Below, piece by piece: positions 5,315 through 39,848 of a stretch of 64,000 bases of DNA. This DNA is from Candidatus Omnitrophota bacterium. GTDB taxonomy: Bacteria > Omnitrophota > Gorgyraeia > Zapsychrales > Fredricksoniimonadaceae. The notes under the pieces are model-generated. The model ran no database searches and was not told where the DNA came from. It saw nothing but the letters and a program-made list of their open reading frames with translations. The stretch covers positions 7,952 to 71,951 of the forward strand of contig CAWHFJ010000013.1 of assembly GCA_963828495.1 (NCBI GenBank). The letters run 5' to 3'. The position numbers and the translations under genes were made by a program. Numbering within the stretch: position 1 is the first letter of the stretch; the number at the start of each line of letters is the position of its first letter.

Positions 5315-5672
5315 TAAACAAGTCAATAAGCCGAGTTCTGTAACCCCGCCTCTGTAAAGCAGCGGGGCGATGGCCATTAGACTAACACCCCGCATTTTTG
5401 CGAGGTATCTGGCAGCCTACCCGAGAATGATGGCGGGCCGGATTAAGCCCGCTTTCCGTCAAAGGTGGAAATCTTCTCCTATTTGGCATTGCTCCATGCA
5501 GAGATTGCTCGTTTCACTTCCCCCGCCAGCGGCGGAGGACATCGTCACTGTAGCTCTGATCCTACCCCGCCCAAGGGCTGGGTGTCCCGCATTATCGGGA
5601 TGCATTATCCTTTGGAGCTCGGACTTTCCTCTTCGACGCCATGGGCATCAAAGCGGCCATCCTGACTTGATT
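5315..5672 (-). ncRNA. rnpB: RNase P RNA, bacterial type A
   Basis: The minus strand contains GAGGAAAGTCCGAGCTCC (5614-5631), GCCAAATAGG, GGGTAGGCTGC and ACAGAACTCGGCTTA. A P1 pairing joins CAAGTCA (about 5663-5669) with TGACTTG (5319-5325). Ends are approximate, within about 10 nt. Confidence 0.85.
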
Positions 5673-6814: not shown

Positions 6815-6891
6815 TGGTGGACTCAGAAGGACTTGAACCTTCGACCTTCGCCATGTGAGGGCGACGCTCTAACCAGCTGAGCCATGAGTCC
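6815..6891 (-). tRNA. tRNA-Val (anticodon CAC), CCA encoded
   Basis: The reverse complement GGACTCATGGCTCAGCTGGTTAGAGCGTCGCCCTCACATGGCGAAGGTCGAAGGTTCAAGTCCTTCTGAGTCCACCA folds by hand as a cloverleaf with anticodon loop CTCACAT. Confidence 0.9.
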
Positions 6892-6904: not shown

Positions 6905-6978
6905 TGGGCCCACCTGGACTCGAACCAGGGACCAAGAGATTATGAGTCTCCTGCTCTAACCGACTGAGCTATAGGCCC
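6905..6978 (-). tRNA. tRNA with CAT anticodon, probably tRNA-Ile2 (lysidine type) rather than elongator Met
   Basis: The reverse complement is GGGCCTATAGCTCAGTCGGTTAGAGCAGGAGACTCATAATCTCTTGGTCCCTGGTTCGAGTCCAGGTGGGCCCA. The anticodon arm closely resembles E. coli ileX. The C4-G69 and C5-G68 pairs match the TilS identity set as I recall it. No CCA is encoded. Confidence 0.8.
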
Positions 6979-8523: not shown

Positions 8524-9459
8524 TCACTGATGCAACATTTTCTTAAGGGCATTCATCAGTTCAGGATTAACAGCGTACCCTAATTCTCCCGCTTTTTGTA
8601 AATTAATCCAGGCCTTATTGTATTCTTTTAACTGATAATAAACAATGGCTAGATTATTATACGCCTGTGCAAGCTTAGGATTTGTGGCAATGGCAATGAC
8701 CAGATCCCCCCTGGCTTCCGGAAGATTGCCCTGTTCAATATAAATACTGCTACGGTTAACATAAGCCTCTGCAAATTTAGGATCTATTTCAATAGCTTTG
8801 CTAAAGTCGGCAATGGCTTGAGAGAACTTGCCTTGTTTGTCATAACCAATGCCGCGGTTGTAATAAGCCTTGACAAGCGTAGGATTGATTTCAATGGCTT
8901 TATTTAAGTCCGCCATCGCCTGGGGTAAGTTCCCCTGTCTCTCCCAAGTAAGCCCACGGTTATGATAGGCATCCGCGAATTCAGGATCTATTTTAATGGC
9001 TTGGGTAAAATCAACTATGGCTTTGGGCAAATGACCTTGGTTGGCCAAAGTCAGGGCACGGTTGTAATAAATCCTTGCGTTTTGAGGATTTAATTCAATG
9101 GCCTTGTTATAATCAGCAATGGCGGCAGTGAAATTGCCTGCTTCGGCGTAGGCATTACCTCTCCCCTGATACGCCCCTATATCATGGGGATTTAAGGTAA
9201 TCGCTTGTGTAAAATCAGCAATCGCTTCAAGGTATTTGCCCTGTTTCTCCCAAGCCAAGCCTCGGTCATAATAGGCATCTGCAAGATTGGGACTCATGGC
9301 AACGGCTCTATTTAAGTCCTCCATGCTTGGTCTAGAGTTATTGTAAGCGGCCCCACGGTTATAATAATCTTGTGCTGTCTGCGCACAGACAGAGGAAATA
9401 TTCACACATAATATACCTGCTAAGATTAATATTGTGGATTTAAAACCGTTACTCTTCAT
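8524..9459 (-). CDS. Secreted TPR-repeat protein
   Basis: Signal peptide followed by about 8 consecutive 34-aa TPR units (A.AYYNRG..Y...G....A I.DF..AI.I.P). The ATG at 9459 overlaps the upstream TGA (ATGA). Confidence 0.8.
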   Translation of the reverse strand: MKSNGFKSTILILAGILCVNISSVCAQTAQDYYNRGAAYNNSRPSMEDLNRAVAMSPNLADAYYDRGLAWEKQGKYLEAIADFTQAITLNPHDIGAYQGRGNAYAEAGNFTAAIADYNKAIELNPQNARIYYNRALTLANQGHLPKAIVDFTQAIKIDPEFADAYHNRGLTWERQGNLPQAMADLNKAIEINPTLVKAYYNRGIGYDKQGKFSQAIADFSKAIEIDPKFAEAYVNRSSIYIEQGNLPEARGDLVIAIATNPKLAQAYNNLAIVYYQLKEYNKAWINLQKAGELGYAVNPELMNALKKMLHQ

Positions 9460-9791
9460 GGGGGGGAGCATTTTAGGTTTTGGATCCGGAAGGCGGTCCC
9501 ATGCTTGCTTTTTTTATGCTTCAGATGAATTTGATTAAGCGCATTAAGCCACTGCTTCATTTGGTCCGGAGTCAAAATTTTACTTAATTTTTGATTCTCT
9601 TCATCAATGATCGGTGTAATCTTTTTAGCTTGAGCCACGGTCAATTTTAATTGAGATTGAATATTCGAAACAATAGACTCGGTGTCAACGACCGGCTGTG
9701 TGGGTGTTTGTGGTGTTGGGGTCTGAGGCCAAGCAGGCATTGTGAAAAAAAAGCAGAGTGCCACGGCAGAGCATATTATTCTTCCCTTCAT
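9456..9791 (-). CDS. Small periplasmic LTxxQ-type protein (Spy/CpxP-like, short form)
   Basis: Signal peptide plus LKLTVAQAKKITPII and ILTPDQMKQW motifs. It is a paralogue of 20056..20448. Confidence 0.55.
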   Translation of the reverse strand: MKGRIICSAVALCFFFTMPAWPQTPTPQTPTQPVVDTESIVSNIQSQLKLTVAQAKKITPIIDEENQKLSKILTPDQMKQWLNALNQIHLKHKKSKHGTAFRIQNLKCSPP

Positions 9792-9809
9792 AGCACTCTC
9801 CTTACAAGA

Positions 9810-9840
9810 CCCCGCGGCTTTGGCCTAAGCCCAAGCGGGG
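9810..9840 (-). promoter_or_regulatory. Conserved GC-rich leader/intercistronic hairpin, copy 1
   Basis: The minus strand reads CCCCGCTTGGGCTTAGGCCAAAGCCGCGGGG, followed by AAGGAGAG and the ATG at 9791. It is about 80 percent identical to the element at 21852..21883. Confidence 0.5.
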
Positions 9841-10215
9841 CTATTTTACTGCCGCCGGCGCGTATACAATCAATTCCCCTCTGAATATTAATAACGCATC
9901 GCGCCAATAATGTATTATTTCTGTGCTGGAATTGATAATAGCATCAGCTCCTTTTTTGCGGGCAATCTTTCTGGCTTGATTGGCCAACATTTCAGGAGTG
10001 ACCCCATAACTGGCATACCCTTCAATAGAAACTTTTCCAATCACATAATAAGGATTGGTGGCCGCAAGGGTCTGTGTCCGGGGATAAACATTCATGTTAT
10101 AATATTGATCTTTCGGCGGGAATCTCTGGTCGGTATAATAGACATACCGTGTACTGGTCGCACACCCCACCAAACCCAACACCAATAAACCCAACAACAA
10201 TATTCTTTTTTTCAT
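9841..10215 (-). CDS. Hypothetical lipoprotein
   Basis: Signal peptide with lipobox LLGLLVLGLVGC. No recognisable domain. Confidence 0.55.
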   Translation of the reverse strand: MKKRILLLGLLVLGLVGCATSTRYVYYTDQRFPPKDQYYNMNVYPRTQTLAATNPYYVIGKVSIEGYASYGVTPEMLANQARKIARKKGADAIINSSTEIIHYWRDALLIFRGELIVYAPAAVK

Positions 10216-10239
10216 AAATAAACCCCTGTTTATAAAAAC

Positions 10240-10830
10240 CTATTTCCCATACATAAGTTTTAGCTGAGAAACTTTTGGGAATTCAGGATAAAACTCTCCT
10301 TGTGGCCCCACAAATCCCTTCCCTGATGGTTTGAGGATGACCGCCGTGTACCCTCCCTTGTCATTAGGGACATTAACAGTAATCGTATCTTCTATGTCAG
10401 CAGCCGCAGGAGTTGGGACTGTGACAGCGCTCTGAATGAAAACCCCTTGAGAGGTTACGACCGGTTGGGAAGCTACAACAGGTGGGGAAACCACAACAGG
10501 TTGGGAAGCCACGACCGGCGGCGTTACCGCTTGATAGCCGTAAGCCGTATAAATATAATACACCCCATTGTTAACATAATAAGTGACCCCATTGACAACA
10601 ACCGGTTGATAACTTGTGGAAGGTGAAACAAGCACATAGCCTGGTGCCGCGTAATAAGGATCCCCATAATAAGGGCCGTAATAAGGGCCGTAGTACCCGC
10701 CAGGCCATACCCCTAGATTAATACCAACATAGCCGTGCTCATGCCCATGCCACGCATAGGATGGCGTTGGCCTAATAATTAATAAACTTAGAAACAAAAA
10801 AATAAAAACCGCCTTTAATGAACTTCGCAT
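10240..10830 (-). CDS. Secreted Tyr/Gly/Pro-rich protein, paralogue 1
   Basis: Signal peptide, a GYYGPYYGPYYGDPYY stretch, VNGVTYYVNNGVYYIYTAYGY, PVVASQPVV tandem repeats, and a conserved C-terminus VNVPNDKGGY...GFVGPQGEFYPEFPKVSQLKLMYGK shared with 20490..21179. Confidence 0.6.
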   Translation of the reverse strand: MRSSLKAVFIFLFLSLLIIRPTPSYAWHGHEHGYVGINLGVWPGGYYGPYYGPYYGDPYYAAPGYVLVSPSTSYQPVVVNGVTYYVNNGVYYIYTAYGYQAVTPPVVASQPVVVSPPVVASQPVVTSQGVFIQSAVTVPTPAAADIEDTITVNVPNDKGGYTAVILKPSGKGFVGPQGEFYPEFPKVSQLKLMYGK

Positions 10831-10902
10831 AAAACCCTCCTTATTACTATTCTCTTTCCGTTAAATTTTAAGTCCTGTTAAGACAAGGGGTCAAATTATT
10901 TC

Positions 10903-11118
10903 TTAGTACTGATGATGTCTATGATGCCTATGATGATGCCTATGATGATGTCTATGGTGATGCCTATAATGATGCTTGCCATGACGATCCCCAAACCCAG
11001 GAGAATGATGCCATTGATACACATTCCCGCCATTGCCGGTATCCGCGTAAACCAAAGGTGGCGCTAACGCCAGCGCGGCGGCCATTATAAAAATTATAAT
11101 CTTAACTTTAGAAATCAT
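10903..11118 (-). CDS. Secreted His-rich peptide (71 aa)
   Basis: Signal peptide ending LVYA, then GKHHYRHHHRHHHRHHHRHHRHHQY encoded by a 12-nt (cat cat cat agR) tandem repeat. A good SD (AGGAGG) and an ECF-type promoter lie upstream. Confidence 0.6.
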   Translation of the reverse strand: MISKVKIIIFIMAAALALAPPLVYADTGNGGNVYQWHHSPGFGDRHGKHHYRHHHRHHHRHHHRHHRHHQY

Positions 11119-11149: not shown

Positions 11150-11178
11150 TTAGACAACTATAGTTATTAAAAAGTTCC
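11150..11178 (-). promoter_or_regulatory. ECF sigma-type promoter P1 (GGAACTT-N16-GTCTAA)
   Basis: The minus strand reads TGGAACTTTTTAATAACTATAGTTGTCTAA. The -35 is at 11172-11178 and the -10 at 11150-11155. It lies 30 nt upstream of the His-rich peptide ATG. The same fixed positions occur at 22427..22455. Confidence 0.65.
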
Positions 11179-11183: not shown

Positions 11184-12588
11184 TTATTTGGTAGGGGTCC
11201 ATCCTCCTCCGAGATATTCGATGAGCAGTACGCAGGCATTCATGCGTTCACCAAGAATGGTAACTGCGGTTTTTTCATTGTTTAACGCGATGGCTTGGGT
11301 AGTGATCACATCCAGCGCGCTGACTGTCCCTGCTTTATACTGATTTGTTTCAAGTGCGACCGCTTTCTGGGCGTCCTTGACGGCTTCATCCTGCACTTGG
11401 GCTTCTTGTTCCAAAATACGCAGCGCCGCTAAATTATCTTCCACCTGGCCAAACGCGGTCAACACCGTCTGACGGTAGCGGCCACATCCGCGTCATACAC
11501 AGCCCTGGCTTGGGCTGTCTGCGCCTGCCTTAACCCCGCGTCAAATATGGTTTCTGCCAATGCCGGCCCGACTGACCACAACGGATTAGGCGATGAAAAT
11601 ATCCGGGATAAATTTGAGCTTTCATAACTGCCTGAGGCGCTTAATGTCAGCGTCGGAAAATACGCGGATTCGGCAACACCAATAGGGCGTTGGCCGCCGC
11701 GACAGTCCTTTCCGCGGCGGCAATATCCGGCCTGCGCTCAAGAATCTCCGACGGTAAACCAGCAGGTACGGACGGCACCGTGGCCGGCAAGGTCAAAGGC
11801 GGAATAGAAAAATCCGAGGCTGGTTTGCCGATAAGCAAGGCGATAGCGTGCTCTAATTGCGAACGTTGAACGCCGATATCAATCGACTGGGCTTCAGTCG
11901 CCTCAAGCTGGGTTTTCGCCTGAATAACATCTGATTGGGCCGCCACACCGCTGGCATAACGGTTTTTTGTCAAATCAAAAAACTTTTGATAAATGGCATC
12001 CGTATCATCAATAAGCTTTTTTTGCGCATCCAGAGAACAAAGCTGAAAATAATCCTGGGCTAATTGGGCCTGGGCGCTTAATCGGGCATTTTCAAGGTCA
12101 GCCGCGCTCGCTTGGGCATTGGCACGGTTGGCTTCCATCGTTCGACGGATTTTCCCCCAGAGGTCTATTTCCCAGTTCACATCGGCACTTAACAAATTAT
12201 GCGAAACGGCTCTTTGCATTTGAAGAAGTGCCTCGCCGGTATGTGATCGTGTATAAGAAGCCTGTGGCACTCAGCGTCGGAAAAAAACCTGACTTGGCTG
12301 CTTGCACAGGCGCGTGCGCCTGGGCATACTGCGCCTGGGCTTGCGCTATATTCTGATTCGAAATGTTGACCTGCTCCTCCAGCGCGTCTAATCGAGGGTC
12401 ATTGAAAATTTTCCACCATGCTCCACGAATAATATCATCTTGAGGATGGGCTTTTTTCCAATCCCCCGATTCTTTATAAGCCGCCGGTATCTGCGTTGTC
12501 GGCTTGACATATTTAGGGCCGACCGCGCAGCCGGTTAAAAGCACGAGCAAACTATGATACTAAAAGCCATTTTTTTTACGCTGAACAT
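11184..12588 (-). pseudogene. Outer-membrane efflux factor (NodT/TolC family lipoprotein), broken by about 4 frameshifts
   Basis: Four fragments are visible. They are a signal peptide piece (MFSVKKMAFSIIV), LLTGCAVGPKYVKP... (12197..12550), 11647..12270, an unlisted frame across 11480-11690, and 11184..11465 (TAFGQVEDNLAAL...LGGGW). Confidence 0.75.
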
Positions 12589-12747: not shown

Positions 12748-15732
12748 CTAAAAATAAGCCCGCCGATGATGGCAATACCCAACGGACGGCGCAAGTTCCG
12801 AGCCCATGCCCCAACCTAAGGCCAACGGCAGTGAGCCCAATATCGCCGACATGGTGGTCATCATAATAGGACGGAACCTCAAGAGACAAGCCTCATAAAT
12901 CGAATCCCGCGAATTTTTCCCTTCCAGACGCTCGGCGTCAAGGGCAAAGTCCACCATCATAATGCCATTCTTCTTGACCAGACCAATCAAAAGGATAACA
13001 CCAATGATCGCAATGATGCTTAATTCCGTGTGACAAATAAAAAGAGCCAGCAGCGCCCCCACACCGGCGGATGGCAAGGTCGAAAGAATGGTGATGGGAT
13101 GGATATAACTTTCATACAAAATACCCAACACAATATAAACGGCTGCCAGCGCCGTCAAGATCAATATCCCCTCATTGCTCAAAGAGGACTGAAAAGCCTG
13201 GGCCGTACCCTGGAAACTGCCGTGGATGGTCGAGGGCAGCATGATCTTATTCATCGCTGCATCAACGGCCTTGACCGCATCCCCCAGAGCTACCCCCAAG
13301 GGTAGATTAAACGAGAATGTAATTGCCGGAAATTGGCCTTGATGGGCAACGGCCAGCGACGTAGTCGATGATGTATAGTGCGCAAATGCGCTTAAAGGGA
13401 CTAATGTCCCATTTGATGACGCCACATAGATTTGCTTTAATGTTTCCGGACGCTGCCAGAATTTGGGCGCGACTTCCATAACAACATAATACTGATTTAA
13501 TTGTTTATATGTAGTCGACACTTCCCTCTGGCCAAAAGCATCGTAGAGAGTGCTATCTATTTCCTGGGCAGTTATACCCAGACGTGCCGCGGTTTTGCGG
13601 TCAATGACAAGATCAGTCTCCTGACCATTGTTTTGTTTATCGCTGCTTAAATCAGCTATTTGGGGCAATTTGCGTAACGCGGCTTCCACCCGCGGTGACC
13701 ATGTTGTCAGATCAGCCAGGTGATCGGCCTGAAGCGTATATTGATATTGCGCATTGCCCATCCTCCCTCCGATAGTCAAGTCCTGCACGGCTGTAAGATA
13801 GGCCGGCGCGCCCGGCACACTGATTAATTTTTTACGCAGACGTGCTATCACCTGGTCGGTGGTGACCTTGCGCACTTCTAAAGGCTTGAGGGCTATGAAC
13901 ATCCTAGCCGTATTTCTGGTAGAGCCGCCGCCGGTGAAAGCCGCTAGCGTATCCACGGCAGGGTCTTTCAAGATGATCTTGACCACTGCCCTTAATTTCT
14001 TCTCCATCGATTGAAACGATATATCTTGAGCGGCCTGAATACTCCCGCCCAAACGCCCGGTATCCTGCTGAGGGAAAAATCCTTTAGGGACAATAGTAAA
14101 CATAACAACACTACTCACAAGGGCGGCTAACGTCAAGGTCAACATGATCCCCTGATGCCGCAATGCCCATGACAAGCTCTTATCATAACTGCGGTGCATC
14201 CAGTCAAATACCCCTTCAGTAGCGTTATACAGGCGGCCATGGGTTTCTTCTTTTTTAGATTTTAAAAGGATCGCGCACATCATGGGGGTCGTCGTCAAAG
14301 AAACCACCATGGAGATCAAAATGGCCACCGACAAGGTCAGGGCAAATTCACGAAACAGTCGCCCCAAAACCCCTCCCATCAATAAGATGGGGATAAATAC
14401 AGCGACAAGGGAAATACTCATTGTAAGAATAGTAAATCCTATCTCTTGGGCCCCCTTAATGGCTGCCTCTTTAGGGGCCATGCCTTTCTCAATATAACGC
14501 GTAATGTTTTCCACTACCACGATAGCATCGTCAACGACAAACCCGGTGGCGACGGTCAACGCCATGAGTGAGAGATTATCCAAACTAAAATGCAAGAGAT
14601 ACATCGCTCCGAAGGTGCTGATGATCGACACAGGGACCACAATACTCGGAATAATGGTAGACCGGACATTGCGTAAAAAAAGGAATACCACTAAAATCAC
14701 CAGTAACCCTGAGATCACCACCGTACGCTGGGCCTCTTTCATGGAGGCACGGATGGTGGGCGAGCGGTCCATGACAACCGAAAGATCGATCGCCGGAGAA
14801 ATAGCTGCCCGCAGTTGCGGGAATAAATTAAGCACAGCATCCACTGTCTTGATCACATTTGCCCCCGGCTGGCGAAATAGTATCACAGGGATGCCTTGCT
14901 TGCCGTTGATCAAGGCCGCATTACGAAGGTCCGCCACCGAATCCTGCACATCAGCTACGTCACTTAACCGTACCGGACGGCCGTTGGAGTAAGCCACGAT
15001 CAGAGGGCGATAATCTTTGGCCTCATAAAGTTGATCATTAGTTTGGATTTCCCAAGTCTTGCTGCCATTGGCGAGCTGCCCTTTGGGACGGTCCGCATTG
15101 GTACTGCTGATGGCGGTACGCACCACGTCGAGGCCTATCCCGTATTTGTTTAACGCCGTGGGATTAAGCTCCACCCTTACTGCCTGCGAAGCCCCTCCGC
15201 CGATGATGACCTGACCAATGCCATCAACCTGGGATAATTTTTGCGCCAGAATGCTGTCCGCTATATCATAGATAGCCGCTTTGGTCATGGTATCGGATGT
15301 CAGAGACAAAATAAGGATCGGCGCTTCAGCCGGATTGACCTTGCGGTAGGATGGATGGATCGGAAGGTCCGCCGGTAAAAAACTCTGTGCCGCGTTGATC
15401 GCCGCCTGAACATCGCGCGCGGCCCCGTTAATATCACGGCTTAAATCAAACTGCAAAGTAATGTTGGTAGACCCCAGACCACTGCTAGAAGTCATTTCAG
15501 TAACCCCCGCGATATGGGCCAGCTGACGCTCCAATGGTGCCGCGACTGAAGAAGCCATGGTCTCAGGGCTTGCTCCGGGTAAACCCGCAGATACGCTGAT
15601 CGTGGGATAATCCATCTGCGGCAAGGTGGATACCGGTAATAAACCAACCGCCACCAGCCCGGCGAGAACCAACCCCACCGTCAAGAGGGTCGTTGCCACA
15701 GGTCTTTGGATGAATGGTGTTGAAATACTCAT
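12748..15732 (-). CDS. mdtC: RND multidrug efflux permease, MdtC-like (HAE-1)
   Basis: It is the second of two tandem RND paralogues after the MFP gene. TM4 motif is [21 protein letters not shown]. One frameshift near 12790 detaches the last ~60 aa, which continue in ORF 12606..12794 ([27 protein letters not shown]). Confidence 0.85.
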
Positions 15733-18700
15733 TTTGAAGTGCCTACACCTAAGCGTTTGCCGACCCGATCAAACCACAAATAAATAACCGGAGTCGTATA
15801 AAGAGTGAGAATTTGACTGAAAATAAGCCCGCCGATAATGGTAATCCCCAATGGCTGCCTCAGTTCAGCCCCCATGCCCCCACAAAAAGCCAGCGGCACC
15901 GCTCCCAGTATAGCGGACATCGTCGTCATCATGATCGGCCTAAACCTTAAAAGGCAAGCCTGATAAATCGCGTCCACCGGAGCTTTGCCTTCCTCACGCT
16001 CGGCATCCAAGGCAAAGTCCACCATCATGATACCGTTTTTCTTGACGATGCCGATTAAAAGGATGATACCGATGAGCGCGATCACGCTTAAATCCGTACG
16101 GAAAATCAAAAGCGACAAAATGGCCCCCACACCTGCCGACGGCAGCGTCGATAAAATAGTGATGGGATGAATATAGCTTTCATACAAAACCCCCAGCACG
16201 ATATACACCGTAATCAAAGCCGCCAGAATCAAAAGGGGCTCATTGCTCAAAGACGATTGGAAAGCCTGGGCCGTACCCTGAAACTCGCCGTTAATACTGT
16301 CGGGCAATCCTATCGAACGCGTAGTCGACTCAATGGCCTTGACCGCATCCCCCAAGGACGCCCCCGGCGCCAAATTAAATGATAATGTCACCGCCGGGAA
16401 TTGCCCCAGATGGCTGATAATCAGAGGCCCTGTCGTTTCCTTAAATTTGGTCAGCACATCCAACGGCACCTGTGCGCTATTGCTGCCTCGCACATAAAGA
16501 TTATGTAACTTATCAGGATCATTTTTGAAATCAGGTTTTACCTCGAGGATAACCCGGTACTGGTTAAGCTGAGTGAATATCGTTGACACGATCCGCTGGC
16601 CATAAGCGCTATAAAGGGTATTATCAATGACCGACGGAGTTACTCCCATCCGGGAGGCGGTGGCGCGGTCAATGGTAATGGATGCCTGCAAAGCTTTGTC
16701 CTGCTGATCGCTGCCAACGTCAACTAACTGCGGCAAGCGACTTAAAGCCGCAACCACCTTAGGCGCCCAGGTATTCAGCTCATCGGCATTAGGGTCTTCC
16801 AGGGTATACTGATATTGAGTGCGGCTGACCGTATCATCAACGGTCAAATCCTGTACCGGCTGCATGTAGAGTTTGACCCCACGAACATCCGCCAATTTCT
16901 TCTGCAAACGGCGGATAATCTCACTGGCAGAAATTTTGCGTTCTTCAATAGGCTTGAGGTTGATCAAAATCCTGCCGCTGTTAAGAGTGGTATTAGTGCC
17001 ATCCACGCCGATAAACGTGGAAAGACTTTCAACCGCCGGGTCTTTGAGGATAACCGTGGCCAATTGCTGCTGACGCCGTGCCATCGCCGGGAAAGAAACC
17101 GATTGAGACGCTTCGGAAATACCCTGGATAATACCGGTGTCCTGGATGGGGAAAAACCCTTTGGGCGCAAAAATGTACAGTCCCACCGTTAAAACAAGCG
17201 TTGCTAAAGCGACAGTTAAGGTCCATTTCTGATGCCGCAACACCCATTGCAGGGATTGGCCGTATTGCTTAATAACCTTGTTAAACATTTCTTCAGAAGT
17301 ATGGTAAAACTTTCCTTGTTTGCCCGGCGGTATATGTTTAAGTAATTTGGCACACATCATCGGCGTTAACGTCAACGATACGATCGCTGAAATGACAATG
17401 GTTACGCCCAGGGTCACGGCGAACTCGCGAAAGAGCCTACCCACCACATCCCCCATAAAAAGCAGAGGGATCAGTACCGCGATCAGGGAAATACTCAAAG
17501 AAAGGATGGTAAAAGCCACCTGCCCCGAACCTTTGAGCGCGGCTTGCAGGGGCTCTTCTCCGGCTTCTATATATCTGGCAATATTTTCAATCATGACAAT
17601 CGCGTCATCCACCACAAAACCCGTCGCGATGGTCAAAGCCATTAAAGACAAATTGTTCAGGCTGAAGCCCAACAGATACATGGCCCCAAAAGTACCGACG
17701 AGCGATACCGGGACCGCAATGCTGGGAATGATCGTCGCCGCCAAGGTACGCAAAAACAGGAACATGACCATAACGACCAACGCCACCGCCAACATCAGTT
17801 CAAACTGCACATCCTTGACCGAGGAGCGGATAGTGGTCGTTCTGTCGGTTAATATGGAAACCTGTACAGAAGCCGGCAGGGAACTTTCCAACTGCGGCAG
17901 CATCTTCTTGATGCCGTCAACAACCTGGATCACGTTAAAGCCGGGCTGCCGTTGGATGTTAATAATGACCGCAGGAGAAGTACTCATCCATGCCGCCTGC
18001 TTGACATTCTCAGCGTCATCAATGACTTGGGCCACATCAGACAATAATACCGGTGCGCCCTTTTGATAGGCGACAATGAGAGACCGGTAGTCTTGGCTGG
18101 ATTTCAGTTGATCATTGGCGTTGATGATGGAGGACTGCCTTGAGCCGTCAAAACTTCCCTTGGCTTGATTGACATTGGCAGAAGAGATCGCTGTGCGCAA
18201 ATCTTCCAAAGTCAAACCATAAGAAGCCAATGACGTGGGGTTGGCTTGAATCCTGACGGCAGGTCTCTGACCGCCGCTGATACTGACAAGGCCTACACCT
18301 GATAGTTGAGAAATTTTCTGGGCGAGACGAGTGTCGGCCAAATCTTCAATCTGAGGCAGAGGCAGAGTTTTTGAAGTCAAGGCCAAGGTCAAAATCGGCG
18401 CGTCGGCGGGGTTGACCTTGCTGTAAACCGGAGGATTGGGCAGATCTGCCGGCAATAAATTAGCCCCCGCATTAAGGGCCGCCTGGACTTCCTGTTCGGC
18501 GATATCAATGCTCAAGTCTAAACTGAATTGAAGTGTGATGACTGAACTACCGCCGGAACTGGTCGAGCGCATCTGCTTAAGACCGGGCATCTGCCCGAAT
18601 TGACGTTCCAGGGGGGCGGTAATGGCTGTGGACATAACATCAGGAGAGGCCCCGGGATAAAAAGTAACGACTTGAATGACCGGGTAATCAACCTGCGGTA

Positions 18701-18809
18701 AAGCGGAGATGGGAAGTTGAAAATAAGCGACACCGCCGGCCAGAAGGATGGCCACCATCAATAAGACAGTCGCCACCGGCCGCATAATAAATATGCGGGA
18801 AGGATTCAT
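15729..18809 (-). CDS. mdtB: RND multidrug efflux permease, MdtB-like (HAE-1)
   Basis: Intact 1026-aa ORF with [21 protein letters not shown]. It has 4-nt overlaps with both neighbours. Confidence 0.88.
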
Positions 18810-20044
18810 GCGCCATCTCCACCAGATGATGGGCCTGAGGGAGATTTTTTATGTTGATAAGCTGCGGACAAGGTGACCTTGCTGCCTTCTTTTAATTTGT
18901 CAGCTCCTTCGACCACAACCACCTCATCCTCTGACAATCCATCCTTAATGGCCACGTTATCTGTCTGGGTTGCCCCCAGCGTGACCGGGCGCACAGTCAC
19001 CGTCTTATCATCTTTGACCACGAAAACAAAATTTCCTTGAGGCCCTTGCTGGATCGCGGCGACCGGAATAATCACAGCCCCTTGGTCGACATCTACAAGC
19101 AGATGAATATTAACGAACTGGTTGGGAAACAAGGCATTATCTGTGTTTTCAAAAATCGCTTTGAGCTTAACTGTACCTGTGGTGGGATCGATCTGGCTGT
19201 CAACAGCAAGTAAATAGCCCATCGCTATCTTTTTAGTTTCCTCACGATCATAAGCCTCTGCCGTCAATTTTTCTCCGGCTTGATATTTACTAAGTACTTG
19301 CGGAAGATTGTCCTCGGGAATAGCAAATACGACTGTGATCGGCTGCAGCTTGGTGATCACGGCCAATCCGGTGGTATCACTAGGCGAAACAATATTACCG
19401 GCATCCTCCAGGCGTAACCCGATTTGCCCGCTGATGGGGGCCGTGACATGCGCATAAGTCAGCTGCAATTTGGCATTGTTGACTTGGGCCTCATCAACCT
19501 TCACTGTCCCTTCATACTGGTGGACCAAAGCATCCTGGGTATCCAATTGTTGTTTGGGTATGGAGTCTTGGGACCACAAGGCCTGATAGCGCGCCAAATC
19601 TAACTTGGCATCAGTGAGCAAGGACTTATCCTTGGCTAATTGCCCCTGGGCTTGGGACAACTGAATCTCAAATGGCCGGGTATCAATGAGGGCCAACAGA
19701 TCGCCCTGCTTGACAATTTGGCCTTCCTTGAATAACACTTGCATCAACTGCCCGCCCACCAGGTACTTGACCGTGACCGTATTAAGGGCCGTCACAGATC
19801 CCAAAGCATTGATATAAATGTCAATATCGCCTTTTTTTGCCGTCGCTGTCACAATAGGCGAATCGCTGGGCCCCCGCCCACCCTTGACAGAGCTGCTTCC
19901 GGCACTTAAAGAGGGGTTGCTAGAGGCTTGATGCTTATGCCAAAAAAAGTAGGCCCCAAGGCCCACCACTAAAACTATCACCACAAACCATTTCCACCGA
20001 GAAGGCCGACGGACCTTGGGCAAAGAACTTTTTTCAACCGCCAT
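18806..20044 (-). CDS. mdtA: RND periplasmic adaptor (membrane fusion protein), MdtA-like
   Basis: N-terminal TM anchor, then lipoyl/beta-barrel MFP sequence ([16 protein letters not shown]...AKLDLARY). Confidence 0.85.
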
Positions 20045-20055: not shown

Positions 20056-20448
20056 TTATTCTCCAGTACTAGAAGCACTCTCTGCCCCACCCGTTGCATA
20101 TCTATGCCGCGCATGGTTTTGCATATTGCTCCATTGACTCATTTGATCTTGGCTGAGAATTTGAGACAACTCTTGATTCTCATCTTCTCTCAACTGTTCC
20201 AACTGTCCATGCATGTCCCCCTTATCCAGGGTCCCATCCTTCAGGCTTTGCCGAAGTTCCTGGCGTTTGGAGATATATTTCTCAATGATCGGTGTAATGG
20301 CCGTCACTTGGTCCGGGGTCAAATTTAATTGAGATCGCAGCTTCGCGACCACATCCGCCGTTGTTTTAGACCCCTGTCCCTGTGCATAAACAGGCATCGT
20401 TACAAAAAGTAACGCTACGCATACACCGACCATTATTTTCACCTTCAT
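20056..20448 (-). CDS. Small periplasmic LTxxQ-type protein (Spy/CpxP-like, short form)
   Basis: Signal peptide plus [15 protein letters not shown] and [10 protein letters not shown] motifs. It is a paralogue of 9456..9791. Confidence 0.55.
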
Positions 20449-21888: not shown

Positions 21889-22401
21889 CTACAAAAAATA
21901 TTTCTCAATAGGTGTCCCCAAATCTGCACTCTCACTGCCAGAGACACCTCCTGAAACATCTGTCAGCAAACTCAAATATTCGACTTGTCCCACTTCATCA
22001 ATCTTAACCGCTGGATTGTTCATCATAAATTGAGGCAGTATGCCAATCATAAGAATTAAAGTGACAACGGATGCCAGAGCAAATACCGGTCTAGGGAAAA
22101 TGGGAACAGCTACCAATTCCCTAATAGAACTCAACCGTTGGCAAATTTCCGCTATTAAGTTTGTTTTTGCCTCTTGCCGGGCCCTAATCTCTGCTCTAAC
22201 CTGGTCCCAAATAACGACCGGGACCTCTTGCTTTTCCACATTAATAAAAGGCTTAACAACCCTTTCTTGGGCAATACTGGCAAACTCTTTACAATGCTGA
22301 CAATGCGCCAAATGCTCTTCAATGGCGCACTTATGCTTGTCGTCTAATTGGCCGTCCATATAATCCGTGAGGATGATCTCTTGAATTTTTCGGCAGTTCA
22401 T
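21889..22401 (-). CDS. Anti-sigma factor (zf-HC2 type) with one TM helix
   Basis: N-terminal HLAHCQHCKEF (H-x3-C-x2-C), a central TM segment (VFALASVVTLILMIGILP) and a periplasmic tail. No ECF sigma gene is adjacent. Confidence 0.75.
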   Translation of the reverse strand: MNCRKIQEIILTDYMDGQLDDKHKCAIEEHLAHCQHCKEFASIAQERVVKPFINVEKQEVPVVIWDQVRAEIRARQEAKTNLIAEICQRLSSIRELVAVPIFPRPVFALASVVTLILMIGILPQFMMNNPAVKIDEVGQVEYLSLLTDVSGGVSGSESADLGTPIEKYFL

Positions 22402-22426
22402 TTTTGGTTAACCCCCTTTCACCTAT

Positions 22427-22455
22427 TTAGACAATCAACGGGGTCAAAAAGTTCC
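22427..22455 (-). promoter_or_regulatory. ECF sigma-type promoter P2 (GGAACTT-N16-GTCTAA)
   Basis: The minus strand reads TGGAACTTTTTGACCCCGTTGATTGTCTAA. The -35 is at 22449-22455 and the -10 at 22427-22432. It lies 25 nt upstream of the anti-sigma ATG. Confidence 0.7.
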
Positions 22456-22456
22456 A

Positions 22457-23881
22457 CTATTTTTCCCAACCTCCACCCAGCGCTTTATATAAAACAACCA
22501 ACGCCTGTAGCTCATTGCGCTGGGCTTGGGCCAATTCAAGTTGGGCAGAATAATATCTCGTATTACTATCCAGCACTTCCAGATAACTGGATGTCCCGCC
22601 CTTATAGCGCAATTCAGACAATCGCGCCGCGTCCTTGGCCGATTGAGTCAACATTTCCTGTTGCGTCCTAAATTCCTGATTTTTGCGGTAGGCCACCAGC
22701 GCGTCGGAGACTTCCCTAAATGCCTGTTGTATCGTCTTACGGTAAAAATGCAAGGCTTCCTGCTGTTGGGCCTTAGCGAATTTGACCCCGGCCCGGATCC
22801 GTCCGGCGGTAAAGATCGGCTGTGTCAGGGTGCCGACAATGTCCCAAAGTCCGCTGGGTCCGCTAAAAAGTTTGCTTAGCGCGGCACTTTGATACCCGCC
22901 GGTTGCGGTCAAGCTGATATCCGGGAAATACGCCCCCTGGGCCACGCCAATCTGCGCGTTATACGCAACCAATTGCTGCTCGGCTTGCTGAATATCCGGC
23001 CTGCGTTCCAGCAAAGAGGAAGGAAGTCCGGCAGGAACCACCGGTGCATGCGGCTGTTGGGTCAAGACCCGTCCGCGTTCAACACTACCCGGGTTATTCC
23101 CCAAAAGAATACTGATTAAATTTTCCTGTTGCTCGATCCTGCGTTCCAGGTCAGGCACACTTTTGGCTGCGGTGTACACTAATTGCTCGGCTTGGCGTAC
23201 ATCTAACATCGACGCAGAACCATGGTCAGCCAAATGCTTGATAAGCCCTAAGGAATCCTGCTGGGAGGCCAACGTGCGTTTGGAAATTTCTAACTCCATG
23301 TCTAATTCACGCAGTTGGAAATACGCGCTACTCACGTCCGCAATCAAGGAAGTAATCACCGCCTGACGGGCCCAGTGGCTCGCCAACAGATTGGCCCTGG
23401 AAACTTCAATCATCCGGCGATATTTTCCCCAAAAATCAAGGTCCCATGTCACCGTTCCAGTAAACGAATAGGCGCCCAGCTCATACGGATTGGATGAAGG
23501 CATCCTTTCAATCCGCTCTCCGATGATCCCAGTCCCTGCAGTGATAGTCGGCAGTTCATAACTACTCGTTATCGTCAACTGTGCTTGTGCTTCGAGAATG
23601 CGGTCTGCCGCGATACGCACGTCATAATTTTGCTGCAAGGCCGTATGGATCAACTCCTGCAGTTTGCTGTCTTGAAAAACTTCCCCCCATTTCTGCTCAC
23701 CGATAGAAGCACTGCCTATTGATGAATCAGGAGATATCCCCCGATAGGCTCCCGGGACATCAACGCTAGGTTTCTTATAATTAGGGCCAATCGCGCAACC
23801 GGCCAATAAGGCGCATAATAAAACAAGAGATTGCTTCGCCCATCGGGCTCGCAATGACACTGCTGTTATACCTCTGTTCAT
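22457..23881 (-). CDS. Outer-membrane efflux factor (NodT/TolC family lipoprotein)
   Basis: Preferred start is MNRGITAV (ATG at 23881, ATGA overlap with the RND stop). Lipobox is LLAGCAIGPNYKKP. The sequence is a full-length OMF ending ALGGGWEK. Confidence 0.85.
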   Translation of the reverse strand: MNRGITAVSLRARWAKQSLVLLCALLAGCAIGPNYKKPSVDVPGAYRGISPDSSIGSASIGEQKWGEVFQDSKLQELIHTALQQNYDVRIAADRILEAQAQLTITSSYELPTITAGTGIIGERIERMPSSNPYELGAYSFTGTVTWDLDFWGKYRRMIEVSRANLLASHWARQAVITSLIADVSSAYFQLRELDMELEISKRTLASQQDSLGLIKHLADHGSASMLDVRQAEQLVYTAAKSVPDLERRIEQQENLISILLGNNPGSVERGRVLTQQPHAPVVPAGLPSSLLERRPDIQQAEQQLVAYNAQIGVAQGAYFPDISLTATGGYQSAALSKLFSGPSGLWDIVGTLTQPIFTAGRIRAGVKFAKAQQQEALHFYRKTIQQAFREVSDALVAYRKNQEFRTQQEMLTQSAKDAARLSELRYKGGTSSYLEVLDSNTRYYSAQLELAQAQRNELQALVVLYKALGGGWEK

Positions 23882-26800
23882 TTTATATGCTCCACTGGCT
23901 TTTTCTTCTTTGCAAACCGCTCTGTAATGACAAACAAAGCGGGAATGATAAAAATCGCTATCATCGTTGCTGTCAACATGCCGGCAATGACCACTGTTCC
24001 CAGCACCTGGCGCGCGACGGAGCCGGAGCCTTTGGCAAACCACAGCGGCAGACAGCCCAAGATAAAAGCAAAAGAAGTCATCAGGATCGGACGAAAACGA
24101 AGCCTCGCTCCCTCCAGCGCCGCATCTATAGTATCGCGGCCTTTTTCATGTTCCATTTTGGCAAACTCCACGATCAGAATGGCGTTCTTGGCGGACAGAC
24201 CTATGAGCATGATCAAACCGATCTGGGAATAAACATTAAGATCAAAATGGCGCATGAAAAGCCCCGCAAAAGCGCCACAGATTGCGATGGGCACGGAAAG
24301 CAAAACTGAAAATGGTAACGACCAACTTTCGTAAAGAGCGGCGAGGATCAAAAATACTACAACGATCGACAACGCGAAAATAGGACCTGCAGTTCCCGCC
24401 ACTGTTTTCTCCTGAAAGGAAAGGTCACTATAATCATACCCCATATTAAGCGGCAAGGTCTCACGGGCCACCTCTTCAAGTGCCGCCAGCGCTTGACCCG
24501 AGCTATAGCCCGGCGCTGCGGACCCCAGAATCTGGGCCGCGCGGTAAAGGTTAAAACGGTTGGTGTACTCGGTGCCGAAGATTTTTTTAATGGTGACTAT
24601 GCTCGAAAGCGGAACCATGTCTTGATTACTATTGCGCACATAAAACTGGTTGATACTCTCGGAACGCATCCTGTCTTCGCCTTCTGCCTGTACCAAAACC
24701 TTCCATTGCCGGCCAAAACGGTTGAATTGATTGACATACAACCCCCCCAGAAAAGCCTGCAGCGTCTGATAAACGCTGCCTATATCCACCCCTTGTTTCA
24801 ATACTTTATCGCGGTCGACATCAGCGTACAGTTGAGGAACGGTCGCAGAAAATCCTGAAATAACCCCTGCAAGCTCCGGCCGTTTTTTACAAGCCGCTAA
24901 GAATTTCTTGACATTCTGGTCAAGAAATTCAATCGACCCGCCGCTTTTGTCCTGCAGCCAAAACGAAAAACCGCCGGAAGTCCCGAGTCCCGGAATAGCC
25001 GGCGGCAATCCGGCAAAAGCTCTGGCCTCGGGCACTTCGGTCGCCAATCTTCTATTGATATTGTTAATGACCGATTGAATTTGTAATTGTCGTGATGTGC
25101 GTTCATCCCACGGAGAGAGTGTCACAAAAAAGAACCCATTGTAGCTGGCTGAAACACGGGTCAACAAACTAAATCCGGAAATACTCGTATAATATTGGAT
25201 CCCCGGAGTGGTCGCCAGGATCCCTTCAATTTTATGAGCCACCTTGTCCGTCCTCTCCAGCGAAGAAGCAGTAGGCAGCTGCAGATTGAGAAAACAGAAA
25301 CCATAATCTTCATTAGGCAGAAACCCTGTCGGGATCTTCCACCCCATCGCTCCATGTCTAAAACCGCGAAGCCGCGCCAAGAAGAATCATGCCTATCAGG
25401 GCCTTGCGGATAACGACAAGGCTCCATTGACCATACTTTTGTGTTACTTTTTTAAACCATTGATTGAAACGATCAAAAAAATTGGCTAAAAAGCTATGGG
25501 ATGCCGCATGACGAGGCCGTAACAAAATTGAGGCCAAGCGCCGGTGAAAGGCTCAGGGCATTAAACGCTGAAATAAGGACCGAAATGGCCACGGTCAAGG
25601 CAAACTGCTTGTTTAAACTCCCCTGGATCCCGCTCATTAACGCAACGGGAATAAATACGGAAGAAAGCACCAGTGCTATGCCTATGACGGGACCGGAAAC
25701 TTCCTCCATGGCCTTAAACGCCGCATCCCTTGGCGTCATCCCTTCCCCTATATGACGCTCAATGGCCTCCACCACCACGATAGCATCGTCGACTACAAGG
25801 CCGATGGCCAACACAAGACCGAACAGCGATAGCGTATTGATGGAGAAATGTAAAAACGGGAAAAAAGCAAAAGTGCCGATCAAAGAAACAGGGACAGCGA
25901 TCATAGGAATAAGTGTGGCCCGCCAATTTTGCAGGAAAAGAAAAACGACCAAGGTGACCAGGAGCATCGCGATCAGAGCGTTATTAAAATCTCCCGGATC
26001 CCTTCAGTCACCGGCAAGGTAGTGTCCAACGCCACTGTATAGTCAAGGTCAGCCGGGAAACGATCTTTGAGCTTTGCCAATGCCTTTTTGATCCCTTCGG
26101 CGACCTGTATAGCGTTAGAACCTGGGGTTTGAAAAACAGCAATATTACAGCTGGGCTGGCCGTTAAATCTCCCAATGACTTGATAGTTCAAAGCGCCCAA
26201 CTCAATGCGGGCCACATCTTTCAGGCGTACAAATGAACCGTCCGGATTGGAGCGTATCACAATTTGCCCAAATTCCTCAGGAGTAACCAGCCGCCCCTGG
26301 GCCCTGACAGTATAAGTTTTTTCTTTACCCTTGGGGGCCGGTTCAGATCCCACCTGGCCGGCAGGATTGACGGTATTCTGCTCTCCGACGGCGTTAACGA
26401 TATCGGCAACGATTAGACCCAGCTTCGCCAGCATTTGCGGCTTGACCCAAATGCGCATCGTATAATCCCCTGCGCCAAAAATCCTGACTTCGCCGACACC
26501 CGGAACACGATAAAGCACATCATTAATATTAATATTCGCATAGTTAGCCAGAAAAAGAGATTTATACGTCTTGTGAGGTGAAAACAAGGAGACGATCATC
26601 ATCGGGAAGCCTGTTGACTTACGAAATGCCAACCCATATTGATTAACATCCGGAGGTAAATTAGGCTGTGCCTGTGCCAGGCGATTTTGCACGTTGACCT
26701 GGTCGATGTTAGAATCACTGTCTACGCTAAAAGTAATGGCTTCTTGGAAGGTGCCGTCATTGGCGTTGGTCGACTGCATGTAAAGCATGTTCTCAACACC

Positions 26801-27010
26801 ATTCATGGATTGCTCTATGGGTGTTGCTACCGACTGCTCGATGGTGATTGCGTCGGCCCCCGTATATGCTGTGCTGACAAAAATCTGCGGCGGGACAATC
26901 TGAGGGAATTGGGCCAGAGGCAACCCCTGTATCGCCACAAGACCGGCGATAACAGTCAAAATGGCGATGACCATCGCCACGATAGGGCGGTTAATAAAGA
27001 ATTTTGACAT
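23878..27010 (-). pseudogene. RND efflux permease (AcrB-like, HAE-1) broken by about 3 frameshifts
   Basis: Fragments are 25973..27010 (MSKFFINRPIVAMVIAIL), 25494..25967 ([18 protein letters not shown]), an unlisted frame at 25381-25530, and 23878..25380. Confidence 0.8.
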
Positions 27011-28785: not shown

Positions 28786-30009
28786 TTACTTAATTGTAGA
28801 CGTCACCATTAAACCGCCATTCAATTTCTTTTCTAACTCTTCCACCTGCTTTTGAAGGACATTGATCTCCCTGGCTTCTTCATCATTTCTTTTTTGCATG
28901 TCTTCAAATTTCTTGTCCAACTCCTTAATGGCATTAACAGCTGCGGCGAGAATGGGCGTTGTGCTGACTTGTTTGTAGCCTTCCCCGCCGATATTGACCG
29001 CTTCGGGAAGCGCCTTCTCAACGTCCTGAGCAATAAACCCGGAATAACGCACTCCCCCGTCATAAAGATAGGAATCTTTTTTCCACGAATAAGTCTGAGG
29101 ATTGATTTTAGATATTGCGGATAAGCCTTGGTCAAAACTGCCGTGAATGTCCTTGAGCCGCACATCAGAGGTGCAGCTCATCAAACCGGCCGCGCTTGTC
29201 TGAACGCCAGCGCAAGAAACAAGCCCTGCAACAGTAAGACTTCCGCCGTTAAGCACCCTCGCGCTTCCAAACACGTCAAGCTTTGACCCCGGCGTGATCG
29301 ATCCAATCCCCACATTACCAACCTGCACGATTAAACTCCCTCCGGGAGTGATCCATGTGCCGATGCCTACATTACCGTTAGTCACAACCAGACCGGCCTG
29401 TGGAGTCGTCGTGCCTATGCCCACGTTGCCTAATCTTACAGCAACACCAATATCGGAAACATCCATTGTAGGCGCAGCCGCCGTTCCGATTTCAAATTCA
29501 GGTTGGGCCATCTGATAGGCGCCCTGACCAGGACGATTTTCATACCGTATGTTCCTTTGATTGGTTAAACCTTTAAATACAAAATCTACTAGATCCACGC
29601 TCCCCAATTGCTGAAACATGGCACCATTAACGCCATTTCTATTTTGCATATTTAATGCTACTGTCCCATATGTATCTCCCGTTTCTTGAAAAGTTAAACC
29701 TGTGTTGGCTGTAATTACTGAGTTAACTGCTCCAAAGGCCCATTGTGCCCCCCCAGTCACCCACGTCCCAATCCCCACATTGCCGTTCATCACCACTAAA
29801 GCTGCTTCACCGGCTCCACCGACAAAGGTTGTACCGATGCCGAGATTTCCACTATGGTACGCATCCCCAATCGTGCTAAACGGCTTTGCCGGCACCCATG
29901 TCCCTATCCCCACATTGCCGCCCATGACGCTCAAAGCAGCAGTCGATGTCTTAGTCGTGCCAATGCCTACATTACCGTTACTGTCAACCGCAAAAGGATC
30001 AGCTACCAT
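28786..30009 (-). CDS. Giant fibre protein 2, C-terminal part (GNVGIGT repeats plus Peptidase S74-like intramolecular chaperone domain)
   Basis: It begins (A)DPFAVDSNGNVGIGT, which in the larger paralogue directly follows ...MFQVSNGS. It therefore continues 29999..32419 across a 1-nt insertion near 30000-30004. The C-terminus is CTSDVRLKDIHG...GFIAQDVEKALPEAV plus a coiled coil. Confidence 0.8.
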   Translation of the reverse strand: MVADPFAVDSNGNVGIGTTKTSTAALSVMGGNVGIGTWVPAKPFSTIGDAYHSGNLGIGTTFVGGAGEAALVVMNGNVGIGTWVTGGAQWAFGAVNSVITANTGLTFQETGDTYGTVALNMQNRNGVNGAMFQQLGSVDLVDFVFKGLTNQRNIRYENRPGQGAYQMAQPEFEIGTAAAPTMDVSDIGVAVRLGNVGIGTTTPQAGLVVTNGNVGIGTWITPGGSLIVQVGNVGIGSITPGSKLDVFGSARVLNGGSLTVAGLVSCAGVQTSAAGLMSCTSDVRLKDIHGSFDQGLSAISKINPQTYSWKKDSYLYDGGVRYSGFIAQDVEKALPEAVNIGGEGYKQVSTTPILAAAVNAIKELDKKFEDMQKRNDEEAREINVLQKQVEELEKKLNGGLMVTSTIK

Positions 30010-32419: not shown

Positions 32420-32442
32420 ACCTTTACCTACATTAATTTCTC

Positions 32443-37275: not shown

Positions 37276-37417
37276 GCCTTTACCTGCCACAATATTTTTA
37301 TATAACGCTATAATTATATAAAATTGGAGGAAAAAAGCCACAGGAATTTCGATAATTTTCATCGGGAAATAAATGGTGACATCTACCAAATTATTGTATA
37401 CTTAAATAGGGTGAGAT

Positions 37418-39067: not shown

Positions 39068-39848
39068 TGAAGTAACCCCTTTAAAGAATCGACCAGTTGA
39101 TCAACGACATGCTGCCCCTCGCCTTCAAAAATTTTTCCCTTGGGTTTGGGCGGGGGTGTGAAAATCTTCAACACCCAGGTCGGCGAACCTTTCAATCCAA
39201 TACGGTTTTCTTCTGCACCGATATCCGCCGCTTTCCAGATCTGTATGACCGCACTTTTAGCTTTCATCTTGCCTTTTAAAGAGGGCAGCCTGGGAGTATT
39301 GATTTCCTTGACCACCGTCATAAGACAAGGAAGCTTTGTCTCAACGACTTCATATCCATATTCTGTCATACGTTCGAGCCGTAATGGTCCCGTCTTTGAT
39401 ATCTTCGATCTTGCGCACATTAATGATTTGGGGAATATCAAGGGTCGCCGGCGATCCCGGGCCCGACCTGGGCCGTGTCCCCGTCAATGGCCTGTTTCCC
39501 GCAAAAAATCATATCATAATCTTTGATCTTCTCGATCGCTTTAGACAGGGTATAACTGGTGGCCAGGGTGTCTGAACCGGCAAATGCGCGATCACTGACT
39601 AAGATCGCCTCATCACAACCCAAAGAAATGGCTTCTCTTAAAGCTGATTCTGCCTGCGGGGGCCCCATGGTGAGAACTATGACTTTTCCGCCGAGTTTTT
39701 CTTTAAGGCGCAAGCCCTCTTCAATGGCATACATATCAAAAGGATTGATCATGGACTTGACACCTTCTCTGACAAGGTTATTGGTGGCCGGATCAATCTT
39801 GACTTCAGAGGTATCCGGCACTTGTTTTACACAGACAATGATGTTCAT
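39064..39848 (-). pseudogene. etfB: Electron transfer flavoprotein beta subunit, two frameshifts (near 39440 and near 39375)
   Basis: [16 protein letters not shown]...CGKQAIDGDTAQVGPGIA, then a third frame LDIPQIINVRKIEDIKDGTITA, then ...MTEYGYEVVETKLPCLMTVVKEINTPRLPSLKGKMKAK (39064..39441). Confidence 0.8.

Follow-up and report, generated by a model that had tools for sequence, protein, structure and literature searches.

Genes and features at the locus

On the minus strand of the window, by which we mean the whole 64-kb stretch of DNA analysed, a candidate promoter (P1) lies between the end of one efflux operon and an anti-sigma gene at the head of a second string of genes. The minus strand from 22456 to 22427 reads TGGAACTTTTTGACCCCGTTGATTGTCTAA, i.e., GGAACTT at 22455-22449, 16 nt, and GTCTAA at 22432-22427, which bears out the reading GGAACTT-N16-GTCTAA at 22427-22455 given in a preliminary description of this DNA. 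That description had also placed the motif just past the OMF stop and 25 nt before the anti-sigma ATG, and both positions hold: the stop codon TAG of the upstream OMF ORF occupies 22459-22457, leaving one base between it and GGAAC, and the ATG (22401) lies 25 nt 3' of the motif. Transcription from P1 is predicted to start at about 22419-22422. From the upstream OMF gene to the end of the second efflux operon, the features are as follows:

22457..23881, minus strand: upstream OMF gene of 474 aa, closing a MarR-MFP-RND-OMF operon that extends to 28709 and whose RND gene is present as three ORFs in this assembly; the OMF stop abuts P1
22427..22455, minus strand: predicted promoter P1, with -35 box GGAACTTT at 22455-22448, variable 13-nt spacer at 22447-22435 and -10 box TTGTCTAA at 22434-22427
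22412..22420, minus strand: ribosome-binding site GAAAGGGGG, belonging to an RTGAARGG box that is kept 3' of the -10 box in nearly all sites
21889..22401, minus strand: sigma-less ("orphan") zf-HC2/ZAS-type single-pass anti-sigma, 170 aa
21267..21833, minus strand: LTXXQ protein (Metal_resist), CpxP/Spy/ZraP-like, secreted, His-rich, 188 aa
20490..21179, minus strand: DUF6515 protein, secreted, His/Tyr-rich, 229 aa as called in orthologues
20056..20448, minus strand: small secreted LTXXQ-like protein, 130 aa, below the Pfam threshold (21.1 bits, cutoff 24.3)
12748..20044, minus strand: MdtABC-like efflux genes with overlapping starts and stops (MFP 18806-20044, RND 15729-18809, RND 12748-15732)
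11184..12550, minus strand: OMF gene ending the efflux operon, present as three ORFs in this assembly (intact orthologues 466-487 aa)

The upstream OMF was identified by a Pfam OEP match (E=4e-52). Between P1 and a second copy of the motif (P2, described below), all genes lie on the minus strand in the order zf-HC2 anti-sigma, LTXXQ, DUF6515, LTXXQ-like, MFP, RND, RND and OMF, with gaps of 0-87 nt, and they are treated here as a putative operon. A scan for terminators and sigma-70-type promoters detected none in the gap between the OMF stop and P1, and nothing above shuffle expectation. With no terminator separating P1 from the upstream MarR-controlled efflux operon, read-through from that operon may also express the genes downstream. 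An Rfam search retrieved no RNA family near the P1 site.

Occurrence of the motif in the window

GGAACTT-N15-17-GTCTAA occurs twice in the 64-kb window, at 22427-22455 and at 11150-11178, both times on the minus strand, whereas 0.00 copies were expected from 100 dinucleotide-preserving shuffles. A scan of the window allowing up to 3 mismatches returned no motif copies beyond these two. The looser form GAAC-N18-20-TCTNA was not enriched in the window (2 found vs. 3.9 expected), and the signal therefore resides in the longer conserved boxes GGAACTTT and TTGTCTAA; the consensus GGAACTTT-N13-TTGTCTAA is the same as GGAACTT-N16-GTCTAA. This lack of enrichment of the short form is what one could cite in favour of the view that the motif fits a loose ECF consensus by chance. 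The shuffle statistics refute that reading, as do the conservation of the motif and its association with particular gene families (both below), and we put its likelihood at next to nil.

The second copy stands before a further string of genes:

11150..11178, minus strand: predicted promoter P2, the second exact motif copy (GGAACTTTTTAATAACTATAGTTGTCTAA), beginning 5 nt past the OMF stop
9456..11118, minus strand: the genes predicted to be driven by P2, four in number and directly 3' of it, as given in the next four lines
10903-11118, minus strand: His-rich secreted peptide, 71 aa, the first gene behind P2
10240-10830, minus strand: DUF6515 paralogue
9841-10215, minus strand: lipoprotein
9456-9791, minus strand: LTXXQ-like protein, 111 aa
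8524-9471, minus strand: TPR lipoprotein-like gene, sharing 16 nt with the end of the string of P2 genes

The mature part of the 71-aa peptide consists almost entirely of His and Arg (HHYRHHHRHHHRHHHRHHRHHQY). Three orthologous loci (L025, L046, and L058) are without this peptide and have the DUF6515 orthologue directly behind the motif. The best NCBIfam matches of the TPR protein were MamA and NlpI, all of them below cutoff; its gene may belong to the P2 transcription unit.

Conservation of the motif in relatives

The upstream regions of relatives were retrieved via protein homology and not via the motif, so the test of conservation is not circular. Across orthologous anti-sigma loci (41-89% protein identity), GGAACTTT and TTGTCTAA are kept exactly and the 13-nt spacer has changed, as seen in the following promoter regions:

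Locus L001: GGAACTTTTTGACCCCGTGGATTGTCTAA
Locus L003: GGAACTTTTGGGCTCCCGGCATTGTCTAA
Locus L006: GGAACTTTTTGGCATTGTTTATTGTCTAA (anti-sigma 54% identical, upstream genes entirely different)
Locus L010: GGAACTTTTTGCCCTTATTTATTGTCTAA (anti-sigma 41% identical)

When 12 upstream sequences were aligned, the invariant columns were G.AACTTT, TTGTCTAA, and part of the downstream GAARG, at a mean column identity of 39%, and the spacing of the boxes was identical in all 12 aligned sites. Perfect boxes at two window sites and in relatives with diverged spacers point to ongoing selection. The motif is evolutionarily conserved and is very probably a genuine ECF sigma promoter of Omnitrophota.

The leaders behind the promoter come in two lengths. 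In the close orthologues L001 (9901-10000) and L003 (9912-10000), the stretch from promoter to ATG is about 75-100 nt longer than its counterpart in the window (22402-22426); the window and L006 share the short form. The long leader contains a conserved stretch, GGAAACGGCACAAATC, and that of L001 also contains a 24-codon mini-ORF. At the long-leader loci RTGAARGG after the -10 box is still conserved, though it lies too distant from the start for a ribosome-binding role. We considered whether the long leader with the mini-ORF (MKGRFSNMDIKETAQILNYLESNI) of L001 and L003 could be a remnant of a sigma gene and set the idea aside as unsupported: the start codon is lost in L003, and the likeness to sigma N-termini is slight.

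The anti-sigma protein

The 170-aa ORF matches Pfam zf-HC2 (PF13490) with E=7.9e-7 and 29.5 bits, above the cutoff of 22.2, and no sigma gene adjoins it; to call it an orphan zf-HC2 anti-sigma gene, as was done from the start, is thus appropriate. NCBIfam yielded sub-threshold ChrR, RsrA, and anti-sigma matches. The models matched are accordingly of the zf-HC2 and ChrR/RsrA types, with no RseA among them, and do not indicate an RseA/MucA-type protein. The zinc ligands C3, H30, C34, and C37 are invariant in 17 aligned sequences, and a transmembrane helix spans about residues 103-128. The AlphaFold model is confident only in the N-terminal helical domain (pLDDT 83-93 over residues 1-50; helices 3-14, 21-33, and 35-53). 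A Foldseek search with this model placed the anti-sigma domains of RsiW, DdvA, and RslA at the top, as statistically weak matches (E about 0.7-7).

At its C-terminus the protein ends in TPIE(K/H)YFL (residues 163-170; window 21892-21915), which is invariant both in the sigma-less proteins and in the sigma-linked class described in the next section. No comparable described motif is known to us; a protease or the LTXXQ protein could use this end as a recognition tail.

Search for the sigma gene

Searching all six-frame ORFs of the 64-kb window that are 60 aa or longer by phmmer, with RpoE of E. coli and SigW of B. subtilis as queries, returned nothing, and Pfam assigned ten window ORFs of 161-229 aa to unrelated families, none of them a sigma. 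The homologues of the anti-sigma form 16 clusters, from Candidatus Omnitrophica where named, and those at 65-100% identity in other assemblies have the same gene context as the window. No sigma was found within about 10 kb of the anti-sigma in the orthologous loci, nor was a sigma ORF present in the 8 kb retrieved at each of seven anti-sigma-first loci from the genome scan described below. What had been said of the immediate neighbourhood, namely that no sigma gene lies next to the anti-sigma, can thus be extended to the 64-kb window and to about 10 kb of the orthologous loci. Adjacency to an ECF sigma gene is confined to a paralogous class of anti-sigma, 161 aa long.

This second class belongs to what we call the canonical operon, which consists of an ECF sigma (182-194 aa), the 161-aa zf-HC2 anti-sigma, and an LTXXQ protein, and which was found in L011, L013, L020, L021, and L131/L132. 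Its anti-sigmas are 31-39% identical to those of the sigma-less class. The gene directly after the anti-sigma is of the LTXXQ family in all canonical loci and in most orphan loci. In each of the five canonical loci checked (L011, L013, L020, L021, and L132), the motif precedes the ECF sigma gene, 13-21 nt before its start. The sigma promoters of L013, L020, and L021 read GGAACTTT-N13-TTGTCTAA, and those of L011 and L132 read GAAACTTT-N13-TTGTCTAA, with GAAAC in place of GGAAC. A motif before the sigma factor's own gene is the classic signature of autoregulation among ECF sigma factors, and the general expectation of the preliminary description, that ECF sigma/anti-sigma pairs are autoregulated, agrees with these five loci of relatives.

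More than 1,600 clusters make up this large and well-conserved sigma family. With TIGR02939 (RpoE_Sigma70), whose cutoff is 236 bits, a related sigma (P0086) reached 101 bits, and it passed only the generic TIGR02937. The nearest solved structures are those of M. tuberculosis SigE, P. aeruginosa AlgU (6in7), and E. coli RpoE (1or7), and a sigma with such relatives fits an RpoE-like promoter. The original designation of P1 as an RpoE/AlgU-type ECF promoter therefore needs to be divided: an ECF promoter is supported by the conservation of the boxes and by the presence of the motif before sigma genes, whereas the sigma is merely RpoE/AlgU-like and not an orthologue of RpoE.

Both kinds of locus were located in the same genome in three cases:

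GCA_015233335.1: sigma-less anti-sigma on contig 5, canonical sigma operon on contig 24
GCA_015233675.1: sigma-less anti-sigmas on contigs 1 and 14 (two copies; L074 and L123), canonical sigma operon on contig 12
MFD01476.bin.2.120: sigma-less anti-sigma at about 0.10 Mb and canonical operon at about 1.17 Mb of the same 1.29-Mb contig, about 1.07 Mb apart

It had been proposed that either the sigma gene is elsewhere or the operon was rearranged. In these relatives both are right, as all three genomes have a canonical operon elsewhere together with a sigma-less paralogue. The two copies in GCA_015233675.1 indicate that the sigma-less class can exist more than once in a genome. Of the five motif sites in that genome, one belongs to the sigma operon, two to sigma-less anti-sigmas that differ from each other, and two to DUF6515 genes (L046, L052, and L104 being among these loci).

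In a neighbour-joining tree, the sigma-less and the sigma-linked anti-sigmas separate into two clades with bootstrap support of 100/100. By its place in this tree, the "orphan" anti-sigma belongs to what appears to be an old sigma-less paralogous lineage, and its presumed partner sigma gene lies elsewhere in the related genomes. We infer that the genome from which the window comes also encodes the sigma elsewhere.

Such an old, separate clade, at 31-39% identity to the sigma-linked proteins, would also be expected if the promoter were real and the sigma-less zf-HC2 protein no longer an anti-sigma, having taken up another membrane role such as anchoring, LTXXQ sensing, or efflux modulation. The gene moreover always travels with periplasmic LTXXQ/DUF6515 cargo and not with a sigma. 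The best conserved part of the protein, however, is its cytoplasmic N-terminal domain, which would be hard to account for without a conserved cytoplasmic partner, and the two classes share the ILTDYxDG motif and the four ligands C3, H30, C34, and C37, as well as having one transmembrane helix each. We regard the loss of anti-sigma function as unlikely.

The sigma of the window's own genome was not located, and -35 variants (GGAAC vs. GAAAC) exist between sites, so one may ask whether P1 and P2 depend on an ECF sigma other than that of the canonical operon, e.g., a second paralogue dedicated to the orphan anti-sigma. Where the two kinds of promoter can be compared within one genome, the sigma promoter and the orphan promoter are indistinguishable in boxes and spacing (L020 vs. 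L006; L021 vs. L010), which makes a different sigma very improbable. We give still less credence to the promoter being a relic in a lineage that lost its sigma, with the genes now expressed by read-through from the MarR-MFP-RND-OMF operon. The absence of a terminator between the OMF stop and P1 and of a sigma in the 64 kb would suit a relic. Against it, the boxes are perfect both at the two window sites and in relatives whose anti-sigmas are 54-89% identical and whose spacers have diverged, and wherever the sigma locus of an orphan-carrying genome was looked up (three genomes), the sigma had been retained.

Motif sites across genomes

We scanned a collection with one genome per species (185,579 species) for the pattern GGAACTTT-N13-TTGTCTAA-N4-7-GAARG. 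The window's own contig was not part of this collection, in which the best nucleotide matches to the window were at 74-83%. The scan yielded 111 sites on 109 stretches, mostly from Omnitrophota-type MAGs, and for 108 of the 111 sites we could extract the first ORF downstream. At 81 of these 108, it was an ECF sigma, a zf-HC2 anti-sigma, a CpxP/Spy-like LTXXQ protein, or DUF6515:

LTXXQ/Metal_resist: 35 sites
DUF6515: 21 sites
ECF sigma: 18 sites
zf-HC2 anti-sigma: 7 sites
Other: 27 sites

The ribosome-binding element in the scan pattern biases the result towards gene starts, though not towards these families. Among the 27 other sites, 15 come from genomes labelled Firmicutes, Proteobacteria, Nitrospirae, Ignavibacteria, or Anaerohalosphaeraceae, and no site in such genomes precedes any of the four families; the remaining 12 are from Omnitrophota-type MAGs.

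In a full-text literature search, no paper was found that brings Omnitrophota and ECF sigma factors together. For a phylum that is uncultured, the present results would define a conserved ECF regulon purely from sequence, with its promoter consensus, its sigma, two classes of anti-sigma, and targets of the LTXXQ and DUF6515 families. They would also provide a first functional context, that of envelope or metal stress, for DUF6515 and for several small secreted proteins, and they mark the sigma-less anti-sigma paralogue as a stable, recurrent member of the regulon and not an accident of assembly or annotation. The promoter, the sigma, and the two anti-sigmas make up a ready test set for synthetic biology. 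No principle of ECF regulation is overturned; we see this as a tidy regulatory finding of modest novelty.

Proposed regulation and comparison with known systems

We consider it quite probable that P1 is a functional promoter of a widespread Omnitrophota ECF sigma (group 4) and that the sigma-less anti-sigma heads an LTXXQ-DUF6515-RND efflux operon within an envelope/metal-stress regulon. In the canonical arrangement, the promoter would drive an operon of the sigma, the 161-aa zf-HC2 anti-sigma, and the CpxP/Spy-like LTXXQ protein. P1 would drive the sigma-less anti-sigma, LTXXQ, DUF6515, the LTXXQ-like protein, and the MdtABC-like RND pump with its OMF, and P2 the His-rich peptide, the second DUF6515, the lipoprotein, and another LTXXQ-like protein. 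Since the products are CpxP/Spy/ZraP-like and His-rich, the stress is likely one of the envelope or of metals. It would free the sigma from the membrane anti-sigma or anti-sigmas, probably via regulated proteolysis as for RsiW, and might be sensed through the periplasmic tail of the anti-sigma and the LTXXQ protein. The freed sigma would then transcribe from P1 and P2; the extra anti-sigma so induced would feed back negatively on the same sigma, possibly adding a second sensory input, and the co-transcribed chaperone-like and efflux proteins would handle the stress.

Anti-sigma and LTXXQ are constantly paired and the periplasmic C-terminus is invariant, which suggests that LTXXQ gates the anti-sigma, and we speculate that it might do so in the manner of CpxP-CpxA or CnrX-CnrY. 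A further elaboration, which we hold to be doubtful and put forward tentatively, is a multi-input ECF switch, in which a set of paralogous membrane anti-sigmas (a sigma-linked one plus one or two that are sigma-less and sigma-induced) would all hold one conserved sigma, each being gated by its own LTXXQ protein via TPIE(K/H)YFL, with DUF6515 as a new family of envelope/metal-stress effectors. Were this true, a CpxP-CpxA-like or CnrX-CnrY-like principle of sensing would have been transplanted onto a ZAS anti-sigma.

The RpoE/AlgU promoters of Proteobacteria (GGAACTT-N16-TCnnA) are nearly identical to P1 in -35 box, -10 box, and spacing, and RpoE/AlgU, as in our reading of Omnitrophota, combine an envelope-stress type regulon with an autoregulated sigma gene. 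The systems differ in that the Omnitrophota sigma falls below the RpoE equivalog cutoff, that its anti-sigma is a zinc-finger ZAS protein and not RseA/MucA, and that the phylum is a different one. SigW-RsiW of Bacillus and SigL-RslA of Mycobacterium likewise have an anti-sigma that crosses the membrane once and has an HxxxCxxC zinc domain at its N-terminus. Regulated proteolysis removes both RsiW and RslA, and this route may by analogy apply to the Omnitrophota anti-sigma. Their genes are co-transcribed with the sigma, whereas the Omnitrophota orphan gene stands alone behind its promoter, and, unlike RsiW and RslA, the orphan has as its extracytoplasmic part a short tail ending in TPIEKYFL.

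For an anti-sigma gene placed apart from any sigma, a comparison can be made with rsiA2 of S. meliloti, which a passage of PMC6180224 describes as an orphan NepR-type anti-sigma in the alphaproteobacterial EcfG/NepR systems. As there, three related Omnitrophota genomes have an extra anti-sigma gene away from any sigma and the canonical pair elsewhere. The NepR-type proteins, however, are small and cytoplasmic and act by partner switching, whereas the Omnitrophota orphan is of the membrane ZAS type and heads an efflux operon.

The arrangement also resembles CnrYXH-CnrCBA of Cupriavidus, in which the anti-sigma has as its neighbour a periplasmic protein of the Metal_resist/LTXXQ type, and ECF promoters serve the RND efflux genes that follow. 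CnrY is short and non-ZAS, however, and cnrH lies inside the same cluster, whereas the cluster in the window is without a sigma. CnrH (4cxf) is a distant match to the Omnitrophota sigma (E=3.7e-9, vs. 6e-23 for SigE). Among solved structures, a sequence search with the 188-aa LTXXQ protein matched only Spy and did not recover CnrX, so the resemblance to CnrX rests on the name of the Pfam family, PF13801, which we take to be linked to CnrX. With a zf-HC2 anti-sigma, no sigma in the cluster, and CnrH a distant match, the locus has neither a CnrY-type anti-sigma nor a CnrH orthologue.

Other features of the window

Many genes in the window are split or truncated (23878-27010, 11184-12550, 12748-15732, 39845-40998, and 52607-53242), among them an RND pump in three ORFs, an OMF in three ORFs, an acyl-CoA dehydrogenase in two, and an SBP fragment. 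The RND gene at 12748-15732 is frameshift-truncated relative to 1033-aa orthologues. In orthologous assemblies the RND and OMF genes are intact, and in L007, from another assembly of the same organism, the breaks fall at different places; the broken genes of the window thus look like long-read indel errors and not pseudogenes.

The minus-strand stretch 28786-37389 contains a row of three very large ORFs (407, 815, and 1648 aa) that consist of GNVGIGT(W/S) repeats, and near-identical N-terminal leader segments recur among them, as does a block SVAPAGSLDVSPTGTICFGSSCKTSWA. A bacterial RNase P RNA (class A, 159 bits) lies at 5311-5673 on the minus strand and overlaps the 3' end of the listed ORF 5605-6789. 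Two tRNA genes are found at 6818-6891 and 6905-6978, both on the minus strand.
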